A DNA stretch of 64,000 nt from Candidatus Melainabacteria bacterium GWF2_37_15 (GCA_001784565.1 MFRL01000027.1:660-64659), one strand, 5' to 3'; shown: positions 19,671-22,106, numbered from the stretch's first letter. Numbers and translations: made by a program. Notes: generated from the letters alone by a model not told the origin.

Positions 19671-19697
19671 TAAAGTATTACTTGAATTTGCCGATAA
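19671..19697 (+). promoter_or_regulatory. Sigma-28 (FliA) promoter, TAAAGTAT-N11-GCCGATAA
   Basis: 15 of 16 positions match the enterobacterial consensus TAAAGTTT-N11-GCCGATAA. The -10 box ends 38 nt upstream of the ATG at 19735. Confidence 0.75.
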
Positions 19698-19734
19698 ACA
19701 AATTAAGTACGCTCATAAACATGGAGAAAAGATA

Positions 19735-20088
19735 ATGGGTTTAGCAGCTAGCCAAGCAAGATTTTTACAGTTGACTGCAAGGAAAAGTGACCTTGAATTC
19801 CGGGGTCAGCAATTAAACCAGGAACGTACTATTAATGCCCATAATATGGAACAGCTCGTTGAACAAATGCAGGCGGCTGCGCAAGTTGATGATGAAGGCC
19901 AACTGGTAAATCCTAACGTTTATAATGTTATTACAGCTGAACTTGAACTTAAGCACTCGATTGACAGAACACTGGAATTAGAACTTAAAAACGTTGATAC
20001 ACAGCAACAGGAAGTACAAACTGAAGTTGACGCGGTTAGCAAGGTTATAGATAAAAACATTGATATGACCTTTAAAACATTCGCATAA
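19735..20088 (+). CDS. Hypothetical coiled-coil protein (MGLAASQARFLQLTARKSDLEF...)
   Basis: 117-aa ORF with a GGAGA RBS, the first gene after the sigma-28 promoter. It has a heptad-rich Q/E sequence and looks paralogous to the ORF at 21696. Confidence 0.6.
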   Translation: MGLAASQARFLQLTARKSDLEFRGQQLNQERTINAHNMEQLVEQMQAAAQVDDEGQLVNPNVYNVITAELELKHSIDRTLELELKNVDTQQQEVQTEVDAVSKVIDKNIDMTFKTFA

Positions 20089-20091
20089 GGA

Positions 20092-20117
20092 GATTCTGAA
20101 ACAAGTTCAGAATGACA
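20092..20117. repeat. REP-like palindromic element, copy 3 (intercistronic)
   Basis: The sequence is GATTCTGAAACAAGTTCAGAATGACA, with stem ATTCTGAA/TTCAGAAT. It begins 4 nt after the stop codon at 20086-20088. Confidence 0.7.
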
Positions 20118-20145
20118 ATTAAGGAAGAGGAAGAGAAGGAATAAT

Positions 20146-20994
20146 ATGAGCTATAAAAATGATCATTTGCTGACTATTTCAAATAAATACGGCGAAGCCA
20201 GCAGCGACGCCAAAGCAATGGTCTTTGAAACTTATGACAGATTACGAGATTTAACAGTGAGCGGCCCAGGCATTGGGGGCGCTTCTGCATATGGTAATAT
20301 AGGCAATTTCTTTATAAATCTTTCAAAATTAATCGGCCCTTCAAATTATATGCCTGTACTTGGATCTTCTGCGATTAATATTCCGGGAACATCCTACTCA
20401 TCACCGATTAGCGGGGGATATTCATCAATCCCCGGTGTACAGTCAGCATTTGGAATGAGCAGCCTCGGTAAATACCCGGGCTTTCCAACAGGAGGCGCAG
20501 CCTCACTTTATAGTATAATGGCGCTGGGTAGTTCTCTTGTTCCTCTTGCAAGTACGTTTTCAATTGGAGGAATGCCTACAGGCGGAGCATCAGCTCTCAC
20601 CGCAAGTATACCCGGAGGGAATTCATACGTTCCTGCTGTCGGAGCTTTTACCGGATTAACCTCTGCTGGTGCCGGGATTGGTGATATTACCCTTCCTGTT
20701 GCCGGAGTAGTGGGCGGAATAGGTGGCTTAATGACACATATGGCGCCTTATTTTGGGCCAAGCGGCCTGGTGGCAGCGCTTGCCGGAAACTTGCTGAGCG
20801 GGTATTCAGGTGCGGCTGTTAGTGGCTACAATTATATAACCAGCAGAATTATTACAAATGCGGATACTATTCTTACAATGAAGATTAAAAACCTTGAAAC
20901 AACAGTGAAACAGTTGGATACTCAAGGTGAGGTAATCAAAAAAATGCTGAAAAGCGCTATTGAAGCTGATTCAAAAGTTGCAAATGACCTTTAA
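20146..20994 (+). CDS. Hypothetical Gly/Ser/Ala-rich protein with helical N- and C-termini
   Basis: 282-aa ORF with a purine-rich RBS (AAGGAAGAGGAAGAGAAGGA). It has an internal duplication (FPTGGAASLYS / MPTGGASALTAS) and a C-terminal coiled coil. Confidence 0.55.
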   Translation: MSYKNDHLLTISNKYGEASSDAKAMVFETYDRLRDLTVSGPGIGGASAYGNIGNFFINLSKLIGPSNYMPVLGSSAINIPGTSYSSPISGGYSSIPGVQSAFGMSSLGKYPGFPTGGAASLYSIMALGSSLVPLASTFSIGGMPTGGASALTASIPGGNSYVPAVGAFTGLTSAGAGIGDITLPVAGVVGGIGGLMTHMAPYFGPSGLVAALAGNLLSGYSGAAVSGYNYITSRIITNADTILTMKIKNLETTVKQLDTQGEVIKKMLKSAIEADSKVANDL

Positions 20995-21006
20995 TCAGGA
21001 ATAATT

Positions 21007-21231
21007 ATGCAAAGGCTCTACTTAAGATTAATTTTTAGCAGGTTAGAAAAAACTTTATACTTTTTTAAAGACTTTAAAACTTTGGTTTATAACCTTATTA
21101 AACCTGCGGTATACAAAAAAAAGATGATAAAAGTGCTTGAAATCAACAGGAAAAAATTATTAAAAAAGCAGGACATTATTAACTCAAAAAACGGACATAA
21201 AAACGCAAAATTTATGAATGTGACACGTTAG
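21007..21231 (+). CDS. Doubtful ORF, very basic 74-aa product
   Basis: It lies 12 nt after the previous stop, with AGGA upstream. The sequence is low-complexity and K-rich, so it may be non-coding. Confidence 0.25.
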   Translation: MQRLYLRLIFSRLEKTLYFFKDFKTLVYNLIKPAVYKKKMIKVLEINRKKLLKKQDIINSKNGHKNAKFMNVTR

Positions 21232-21390
21232 TTTAGTCGATTACAGGGAATATATTAAATAGGGAAACATAAACATTTGTAACAATTATTTACGTTAAAA
21301 AGTAAATTAACCAGGCTCAATTGTTTTTATATATATAGGAGTAAGTTATTTCTTCTATAAGGGAATTCGTCGAAAAGGAGCACTCCACAA

Positions 21391-21669
21391 ATGTCAGCAC
21401 CAGCAACAGCTATAAGTAACTACTTTAAAAATATGGCAAGCTTTGGCAGGATAACACATTCTTATTTTAGAAGAAGAAATCCTGTTGCTAAGGCGGTGGT
21501 GAACTTTTTAACTTCAATTTATAATCTGTTGAGTTTGAAAAAACGACTAAAATCAATGCAATACCAGGTGCAGCTAACTCAATACAGAATGCACCAAATG
21601 GAAAAAATGATGAATGAAGCCAATCCTTATAATTCACAGGGAGGTTTTCACATTAATAAATACAGATAG
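21391..21669 (+). CDS. Hypothetical small protein (KNMASFG motif, Q/M-rich C-terminus)
   Basis: 92-aa ORF with an AAGGAG RBS 8 nt upstream. Confidence 0.45.
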   Translation: MSAPATAISNYFKNMASFGRITHSYFRRRNPVAKAVVNFLTSIYNLLSLKKRLKSMQYQVQLTQYRMHQMEKMMNEANPYNSQGGFHINKYR

Positions 21670-21695
21670 GTAACAAAGGCACGGGGAATCGAATA

Positions 21696-22034
21696 ATGGG
21701 GCTATTTTCAGGCATAATCGGTCTGGTACACCTACAACAAAGACAGCTAGATCTTGAATATAAAGTTCAGGATATTCAGACTAATATAAATCAGGTTTCT
21801 TCCTATGCAGTGGAACTTGTTACCATTGGGGATGAACTTGATCCTGAATCTGCGGAATTTAAACGGCTTAATACACGAAAGAAAAAGCTCGAATTAATGG
21901 AAAAACGGCTTCAATCTGAGTTAACCAGATATCAAACCCAGTTAAAAATTGTAAACCAGCAACTTGAGTCTTACCAGAAAATGGTTGATGGAAGTATTAA
22001 GAGATTATGCACTTTTGGTGATGCCGGGCGTTAA
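21696..22034 (+). CDS. Hypothetical coiled-coil protein (MGLFSG...RQLDLEYKVQ), paralog-like of 19735
   Basis: 112-aa ORF, last gene before the terminator. It shares the MGL start and the L..L..R..DLE[FY] block with the first gene. Confidence 0.55.
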   Translation: MGLFSGIIGLVHLQQRQLDLEYKVQDIQTNINQVSSYAVELVTIGDELDPESAEFKRLNTRKKKLELMEKRLQSELTRYQTQLKIVNQQLESYQKMVDGSIKRLCTFGDAGR

Positions 22035-22071
22035 CGCATAACACAAATGCTATAAAATTTTATATATTTTG

Positions 22072-22106
22072 GGACAGGGGCGCCGAAGGCGCCCCTGTCC
22101 TTTTTT
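22072..22106 (+). terminator. Intrinsic terminator of the sigma-28 operon
   Basis: Perfect 13-bp GC-rich stem GGACAGGGGCGCC/GGCGCCCCTGTCC with loop GAA, followed by T6. Confidence 0.85.

Follow-up and report, generated by a model that had tools for sequence, protein, structure and literature searches.

Which proteins are served by the near-consensus sigma-28-type promoter found in a 64,000-nucleotide (nt) stretch of Candidatus Melainabacteria bacterium GWF2_37_15 (GCA_001784565.1, MFRL01000027.1:660-64659), and what could they build? The whole stretch is referred to here as the window. The promoter begins at position 19671 and is followed on the same strand by five open reading frames (ORFs), named O1 to O5, for which an earlier reading made from the sequence alone (the sequence-only reading) had proposed an undescribed late-class motility or secretion module. 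Based on our analysis, the locus is a genuine class-wide (Vampirovibrionia/Melainabacteria) FliA (sigma-28)-type transcription unit, which encodes five proteins of undescribed families. We give roughly even odds (a probability of about 0.5) to the reading that the operon encodes late substrates of a flagellar-type export apparatus which build or decorate a surface structure, following a flagellin-like logic without homology to flagellin. There is also a substantial chance that this undescribed, FliA-type and class-spanning module specifies a distinct appendage.

The promoter consists of the −35 element TAAAGTAT (19671-19678, + strand) and the −10 element GCCGATAA (19690-19697, + strand), separated by an 11-nt spacer; 37 nt lie between the end of the −10 element and the ATG of O1 (19735), and the Shine-Dalgarno sequence of O1 is GGAG (19723-19726). 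Read directly from the sequence, it agrees with TAAAGTTT-N11-GCCGATAA at 15 of 16 positions, as first noticed in the sequence-only reading. It is the single site in the 64-kb window with at most one mismatch to this pattern, and no such site appeared in 100 dinucleotide-preserving shuffles. Also, the sole exact match in the window to TAAA-N15-GCCGATA is the O1 promoter. The upstream regions of the first O1 were compared across 73 distinct loci, counting sites with at least 10 of the 12 scored positions of TAAA-N15/16-GCCGATAA. A sigma-28-type site was found in 49 of the 73, against 1.5% of random 80-nt windows. The conserved sites lie 32-71 nt, mostly 36-46 nt, 5' of the O1 start codon; TAAAG is complete in all 49 (its G was not scored), CCGA is also invariant, and positions 6-8 are mostly T. 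Caenarcanum (locus L009) and Vampirovibrio chlorellavorus (L050, L070) are among the loci with a conserved promoter, and several of the remaining loci have degenerate forms such as TAAAGTTT...GTCGAATA. Judged from sequence and conservation, the site upstream of O1 is a phylogenetic footprint of a FliA-type promoter, and transcription is predicted to depend on FliA.

All five ORFs lie on the + strand and are called identically by the public gene callers. O1 (19735-20088; 117 amino acids, aa) is an acidic (isoelectric point, pI, 4.6), cysteine-free two-helix hairpin and the founding member of its family, and O2 (20146-20994; 282 aa) is glycine-rich with hydrophobic helices. O3 (21007-21231; 74 aa) is basic (pI 10.6) and fast-evolving, O4 (21391-21669; 92 aa) is basic (pI 10.5) and helical, and O5 (21696-22034; 112 aa) is a fixed-size paralogue of O1 which lacks the variable insert described below. 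O1 and O2 are 100% identical to A2Y25_10750 and A2Y25_10755, respectively (NCBI records, Candidatus Melainabacteria bacterium GWF2_37_15). The run ends at an intrinsic terminator (22071-22106, + strand), with a 14-bp stem (22071-22101) containing 11 G-C pairs and followed by T6. The five same-strand ORFs of these sizes and the terminator hairpin with its T6 tract were recovered as the sequence-only reading had given them. Signal peptides are absent from all five products, and no ATPase, secretin or transporter gene is present among the five genes of the operon. Concerning selection, the proportion of nonsynonymous differences (pN) to relatives is much below that of synonymous differences (pS) in all five ORFs, which points to purifying selection. 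The corresponding rate ratios (dN/dS, with dS saturated) are 0.04-0.06 for O1, 0.05-0.09 for O2, 0.17-0.31 for O3, 0.11-0.38 for O4 and 0.08-0.10 for O5. O1 to O5 are real genes whose coding sequence is conserved.

The close homologues (260 of O1 and 523 of O2) all belong to Melainabacteria or Cyanobacteriota metagenome-assembled genomes (MAGs), and none contains a Pfam domain. In a scan of one genome per GTDB species, relatives of O2 are encoded in 484 stretches. The arrangement O1 (one or two copies)-O2-O3-O4-O5 is repeated in some 80 GTDB loci retrieved from the class Vampirovibrionia. Based on hidden Markov model searches of the fetched loci, O1 (one or two copies)-O2-O4-O5 is found in Gastranaerophilales, Caenarcanum and relatives. 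Vampirovibrionales, which include the high-GC clade (L001), have a shortened version, O1-O2-(weak O4); V. chlorellavorus contains homologues of O1, O2 and, weakly, O4. O4 was found in 70 loci, and in nearly all loci with O4 and O5 the position of O3 is occupied by a basic ORF of 49-78 aa, in most of which a related sequence can be recognised. Nearly every fetched gut Gastranaerophilales locus keeps the operon, most of them with the sigma-28-type promoter. No Obscuribacter-named genome is among the matches listed; Obscuribacterales are reported to be flagellum-free. The flanks of the operon in several lineages are housekeeping genes, neither conserved nor flagellar. Whether gene order and promoter extend to related genomes had been left open by the sequence-only reading; both are conserved across the class, with the ORFs under purifying selection.

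Operon contigs are also deposited under unrelated names (uncultured Gammaproteobacteria, Muribaculaceae, Clostridium sp., Alistipes senegalensis, Anaerovoracaceae and Eubacteriales; loci L006, L007, L019, L024, L027, L041, L044, L047, L064, L068, L069, L075, L079 and L080). Mislabelling of MAGs, or bins contaminated with stray contigs, is the probable cause.

The AlphaFold2 model of O1 (predicted local distance difference test, pLDDT, 91.5) is a two-helix hairpin with helices at residues 3-48 and 60-116. The first ~32 and last ~45 residues are near-invariant across the class (alignments A1 and A3), and many of them are polar (R9, R16, E21, Q25, N28, R31, D77, E81, T96, E97, K103, K107 and K114); so many polar residues held nearly constant at the termini suggest conserved intermolecular contacts. 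The hairpin tip varies in both sequence and length, and the inserts located there range from 0 to over 650 aa. A search with the O1 profile against 1.84 billion cluster representatives returned 3412 clusters at E ≤ 1e-3 and 2053 at E ≤ 1e-10, the family clusters being defined at 50% identity. Members of the family measure 109-771 aa; in the longer ones, the profile aligns with the N-terminal and the C-terminal part individually. Environmental species, including GWF2_37_15, have either no insert or a very short one (about 10-17 residues), and gut species have inserts of 200-650 aa; the O1 proteins of gut Gastranaerophilales measure 300-500 aa and usually occur as two tandem copies. In species pairs whose O2 proteins are 80-91% identical, the O1 termini share 84-95% identity compared with 29-69% for the inserts. 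Cysteine makes up 0.00% of small O1 and 0.36% of large O1 proteins, against 1.06% in neighbouring background proteins; threonine reaches 10.3% in O1 against a background of 5.2%, and Tyr, Asn and Asp are enriched as well. No domain can be recognised in most inserts, and two contain known modules: dockerin repeats with Pro/Thr/Ser linkers (P0359), and GLUG repeats with an IgA1-protease N-terminal region (P0275). The dockerin and GLUG/IgA1-protease Pfam families are modules of extracellular proteins. The hypervariable, Thr/Asn/Tyr-rich insert is probably displayed on the surface. In most large O1 proteins (e.g. L026:3694-4728 and P0267-P0355) a hinge motif, VPTPPS, is present where the N-terminal helix ends and the insert starts. 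Concerning O5, its profile aligns with that of O1 over the full length (hhalign: probability 99.5%, E = 1e-22); across loci it is 104-136 aa long and carries no variable insert.

The reading of O1 as a late-class exported substrate which ends up outside the cell is drawn from several of these traits taken together: the FliA-type promoter, the lack of a signal peptide, the low cysteine content, the hairpin termini, the fast-evolving tip insert with its occasional extracellular modules, the minor paralogue and the tandem duplication. Under this reading, once sigma-28 is active, O1 and its fixed-size paralogue O5 would be made without a signal peptide and exported unfolded via a flagellar-type type III apparatus (FlhB, FlhA, FliPQR and FliI). 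Their conserved terminal helices would then assemble O1 and O5 into a surface filament or coat with the insert facing outward, much as flagellin and needle subunits assemble. O2 might act as a cap, anchor or membrane-inserting partner, and the small basic proteins O3 and O4 could be cytoplasmic partners or regulators of the acidic O1. FliA dependence, passage through this apparatus, polymerisation and the functions assigned to O2-O5 are inferences. As to the secretion part of the original proposal, it gains indirect support, O1 having no signal peptide yet some of its relatives carrying dockerin or GLUG inserts.

The window also encodes components which could serve such a pathway. A FliA/WhiG-like sigma factor of 212 aa (59661-60299, − strand), lying outside the operon, is the candidate cognate factor and would act in trans. 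The sequence-only reading had simply called it the cognate sigma factor; among NCBIfam models FliA_WhiG indeed fits it best, yet its score of 78 bits falls short of the curated cut-off (190), and Pfam sees region 4 only. The flagellar type III export gate is represented by FlhB, encoded at 60292-61374 (− strand; Pfam Bac_export_2, E = 5e-117). The flhB gene stands alone, outside any fliPQR-flhBA cluster, and the sigma gene follows directly with an 8-nt overlap. A metagenome scan with the window's sigma factor returned six close relatives, and flhB and the sigma gene are adjacent in five of the six loci, including groundwater-metagenome contig AMFJ01007670, which from its accession prefix we take to be part of the ACD20 genome. 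A gene of the ParE toxin family (with a small upstream ORF, possibly an antitoxin) and fur flank the pair in the window. The fliW-csrA gene pair, a flagellin-sensing partner switch, is located at 4454-5196. Its presence implies a canonical flagellin gene at another place in the genome, and the organism probably makes a canonical flagellum. No flagellin gene was found in the set of ORFs from the window and the first 82 loci, and neither the window nor any of the fetched loci showed injectisome genes.

Several observations weigh against export by a flagellar-type apparatus and assembly at the surface. The operon never adjoins flagellar genes in the loci examined. A recognised extracellular domain is present in only 2 of 118 large inserts, and the minimal O1 proteins (109-117 aa), among them that of the window, have almost no insert to display. 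The best superpositions of the O1 hairpin are generic and include the intracellular proteins PspA and Vipp1 (template modelling scores, TM-scores, of 0.79-0.85). Unlike the chaperones of type III secretion systems (T3SS), which as a rule are acidic, O3 and O4 are basic. Finally, species with a partial flagellar gene set have no reported hook or outer-membrane ring genes, which leaves the crossing of the outer membrane by a substrate unexplained.

No non-photosynthetic bacteria are more closely related to cyanobacteria than Melainabacteria, which include a widespread, ancestral lineage of the human gut. Reduced flagellar basal bodies can be retained as secretion machines, as in Buchnera, and to our knowledge no substrate has been proposed earlier for the partial flagellar apparatus of Melainabacteria. 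Canonical flagellins have been reported for Melainabacteria (PMC3787301; PMC7018530). V. chlorellavorus is listed with separate fliS, fliT, flgK, flgL, flgN and fliD genes and a sigma-28 gene (PMC4451040, supplements), and its Table S3 gives two each of flhB, fliPQR, flhA, the flgB-flgC-fliE-fliF cluster and motAB, with no line for fliC (PMC4451040). These duplicate export and rod genes hint at a second flagellum-related apparatus in the class, possibly an ancestral one. Koala and human Gastranaerophilales keep FlgB/C/(F)/G, FliE, FlhA/B and FliI/J/P/R, and are without FliC, FliD, FlgE, FlgK/L, FliG/M/N, MotAB and FlgH/I (PMC4040986, supplementary table); such a partial set is found in ~75% of Gastranaerophilales genomes (bioRxiv 10.64898/2026.04.24.720558).

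Since nearly all fetched gut Gastranaerophilales loci have the operon, many of the species with a partial flagellum must, going by these frequencies, carry it. If so, the operon is a candidate explanation for the retention of the export gate, and the likeness to Buchnera would lie in gut Gastranaerophilales which, though devoid of flagellin and motor genes, have kept those for the export gate and the rod, together with the O1-O5 operon. The retained promoters suggest that FliA may be kept in these species as well. A wider proposal, which we put forward as tentative and rather doubtful, is that Melainabacteria possess an unrecognised appendage or coat of hairpin subunits (mainly the antigenically variable O1, with O5 as the minor subunit), exported by a flagellum-derived type III system. 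It would be the reason why the partial flagellum is retained in the flagellin-less gut Gastranaerophilales (~75%), and would form their main hypervariable host-facing structure.

The retention of a partial flagellar set in most gut Melainabacteria has been a puzzle since 2014, and the operon offers a concrete candidate set of substrates. O1 evolves like a surface antigen, with thousands of variants, fast-diverging inserts and occasional adhesive or enzymatic modules. If the favoured reading is true, the operon would define a new family of type-III-exported structural proteins and a second independent case of the flagellin design (a conserved hairpin with a variable display domain), with a bearing on host immune recognition, on MAG annotation and on the evolution of flagella into secretion devices. 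For MAG annotation, five new families comprise more than 3000 clusters now labelled hypothetical. Should the proteins be intracellular, they would still be a large, unannotated and class-specific part of the FliA regulon.

The likeness to flagellin (FliC/Hag, giant and enzyme-bearing forms included) extends over several features. These are a sigma-28-type promoter sequence, the lack of a signal peptide and the near absence of cysteine; terminal helices which pair as a hairpin; a hypervariable tip insert of zero to hundreds of residues, sometimes with functional modules; and tandem paralogues and a very large number of sequence clusters. There are differences as well: only ~48 + 57 aa of O1 are conserved, which equals a D0-type hairpin in size, a D1 domain is lacking, and the smallest proteins have 109 aa; no homology can be detected; and the partners O2 to O5 are unrelated to FliD, FliS and FlaG. 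Flagellin_N (PF00669) and Flagellin_C (PF00700) gave no Pfam match (E up to 10) to O1-O5 and none in 8 + 118 large O1 homologues, and hhalign of the O1 profile against Bacillus subtilis Hag, a weak test, gave a probability of 1%. The identification of O1 as flagellin itself was rejected on the basis of the canonical flagellins reported in Melainabacteria and of FliW and CsrA in the window.

Among flagellar axial proteins, FlgB, FlgC and FliE are near O1 in size, which is a resemblance only; no Pfam or NCBIfam match to axial-protein motifs (Flg_bb_rod PF00460 and Flg_bbr_C PF06429) was found for O1-O5. Needle and filament subunits (PrgI/MxiH and EspA) are likewise small helical hairpins with conserved termini which polymerise after type III export. 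The PxxP turn of the needle proteins is absent from O1, whose loop contains a single Pro in a D/N-P-x-S/T motif; there is no Pfam match, and hhalign of the O1 profile against Salmonella PrgI (again a weak test) gave 0.1%. FlaC, FspA, Fed and Cia of Campylobacter are late-class proteins without a signal peptide, which are secreted via the flagellar T3SS and act outside the cell. The proposed common ground with O1 is the route (flagellar T3SS and sigma-28 control), no sequence relationship having been found; the Campylobacter proteins are genus-restricted and are not hairpins with invariant termini, whereas the O1 family is class-wide and has four dedicated partner genes.

Of the alternatives, the one that survives best, though we hold it to be unlikely, is that O1 is displayed or secreted by a non-flagellar route (a glycine-zipper pore formed by O2, vesicles or type I secretion), sigma-28 merely co-regulating it with motility and the hairpin serving as an envelope-anchored coiled-coil stalk. 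It would agree with the lack of linkage between operon and flagellar genes, with the extracellular modules in some inserts, and with the reported lack of hook and L/P-ring genes in partial-set species. The glycine-rich helices of O2 also speak for it. In alignment A2, this protein shows a conserved N-terminal helix, a Gly/Ser/Pro-rich middle, which is probably disordered, glycine-zipper-like hydrophobic helices at ~165-230, and a C-terminal amphipathic helix, which is conserved too. The conserved glycine-rich helices are moderately hydrophobic (maximum hydropathy 1.54, residues 178-196). AlphaFold2 modelled O2 with low confidence (pLDDT 44), too poorly for a fold search. Against such a route, the operon brings no ATPase, secretin or transporter gene of its own, its five products are without signal peptides, and the tight, ancient conservation of the sigma-28 promoter and the cysteine-free, flagellin-like architecture fit type III substrates better. 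The C-terminal helices of O2 and O1 align in register, albeit weakly (hhalign E = 0.003, probability 10%, 51 columns), and from this sequence match O2 could share a terminal-helix module with O1.

A quite unlikely alternative places O1 and O5 inside the cell, as coiled-coil hairpins of a cytoskeletal or membrane-remodelling assembly (PspA/Vipp1/ESCRT-III-like) with a membrane-associated O2, co-induced with motility. The TM-scores of the O1 model are highest for the PspA hairpin (0.85, 4whe), followed by Rad50 and SynPspA (0.80) and IpaB and Vipp1 (0.79). The start of O5, MGLFSG, resembles the N-terminus of PspA/Vipp1, being of the MGLF type, and the hydrophobic helices of O2 would suit a membrane partner. 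However, the likeness to these members of the ESCRT-III superfamily is confined to the hairpin (Foldseek E 0.5): helices 4 and 5 of PspA are missing in O1, the PspA_IM30 profile (PF04012) was not matched even at E values up to 10, and aligning the O1 profile with Escherichia coli PspA in hhalign (a weak test) gave 0.1%. All Foldseek matches of the O1 model in the PDB are generic helical hairpins, none with E < 0.1. An intracellular role would also leave unexplained the hypervariable Thr/Asn-rich insert, the dockerin and GLUG modules, the Pro/Thr linkers and the depletion of cysteine. The top Foldseek match is CT398 (E = 0.11); identity with HP0958/CT398 (COG1579) was rejected, as these proteins need a C4 zinc ribbon and the O1 family is without cysteine. 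The JGI label 'Zn-ribbon protein' on some homologues is coiled-coil noise.

It is very unlikely that some of the five products belong to known late flagellar proteins and have merely diverged to an extreme degree, O3 or O4 being an anti-sigma factor like FlgM or a chaperone like FliS, FlgN or FliT, and O1 or O5 being FlaG- or junction-like. The operon would in that case be part of the ordinary late flagellar equipment. The sigma-28-type promoter and the small helical products are in line with this, and FlgM is not listed for V. chlorellavorus, so that an unrecognised anti-sigma factor may exist. On the other side, O1-O5 gave no match (E up to 10) to the Pfam models of FlgM (PF04316), FlgN (PF05130), FliS (PF02561), FliT (PF05400), FlaG (PF03646), FliD (PF02465/PF07195), flagellin or the rod and hook proteins, and none to NCBIfam models. 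Moreover, V. chlorellavorus has its separate fliS, fliT, flgK, flgL, flgN and fliD beside O1 and O2, canonical flagellins are on record in Melainabacteria (PMC3787301), and the hypervariability and large inserts are unlike chaperones or regulators. Scans of O1-O5 with Pfam, NCBIfam, PHROGs and PADLOC gave weak coiled-coil noise only, also with regard to phage and anti-phage defence, and the O1 and O2 alignment profiles had no match among PDB sequences. A literature search found no description of the O1-O5 module. The sequence-only reading had recognised no late flagellar family in the five products; the profile searches of O1-O5 and the Foldseek search of the O1 model likewise place none of them, and the proposal of an undescribed late-class module is upheld. 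Lastly, it has a practically negligible probability that the promoter match arose by chance and that the ORFs behind it are spurious or confined to one lineage: searches relaxed to two or three mismatches do give chance-level matches at other positions of the window, but none of the shuffles contained a site with at most one mismatch, promoter and genes are kept across orders, and pN is far below pS in all five ORFs.

O3 and O4 (pI ~10.5) contrast in charge with the acidic O1 (pI 4.6). In the gap between these two small genes, a conserved two-part DNA element (AGTAAAT ... TTGTTTTTATATATATAGG) is located at 21301-21339 (+ strand), 50-90 nt 5' of O4. Its pattern is AGTAAAT or GGCAAT(A/T), ~13 nt, then TTGTTTTTATA(T/G)(A/T)TAT; 44 of 63 distinct loci have it at the corresponding place, and the pattern matches only 50 times in the 2 Mb searched. 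The element fits neither the sigma-28 consensus nor a good sigma-70 promoter, and no sigma-28 promoter is present 5' of O4. Possibly it serves as an internal promoter recognised by an unknown sigma factor, or else in regulation, e.g. by CsrA. Consequently, O4-O5 may have a promoter of their own, and the 'five-ORF operon' of the sequence-only reading, whose order and promoter are conserved, may consist of two units. A conserved Shine-Dalgarno sequence, AAGGAGTA, lies 3' of the element, often in a small hairpin (GGAGCACTCC in the window, 21377-21386). A search of region 19300-22400 against Rfam gave nothing credible.

Elsewhere in the window, a weaker sigma-28-like site, TAAAGTTAAACCTAAAAATACCGATT (58507-58532), is located 5' of an unannotated ORF of 123 aa (58658-59029). 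The product has no Pfam match; its N-terminus is rich in Pro, Thr and Gln, and it bears a loose resemblance to FlgM. Upstream of the operon and divergent from its promoter region, a 733-aa tetratricopeptide-repeat protein with a signal-peptide-like N-terminus is encoded at 17319-19520 (− strand); it is not kept beside the operon elsewhere. At the downstream end, a second G+C-rich hairpin of 18 bp (22101-22139, + strand) shares its T-run with the first terminator and has an A-run on its flank. Together, the two hairpins (22071-22139) look like a tandem or bidirectional terminator, 5' of an ATP-binding cassette (ABC) ATPase gene at 22227.

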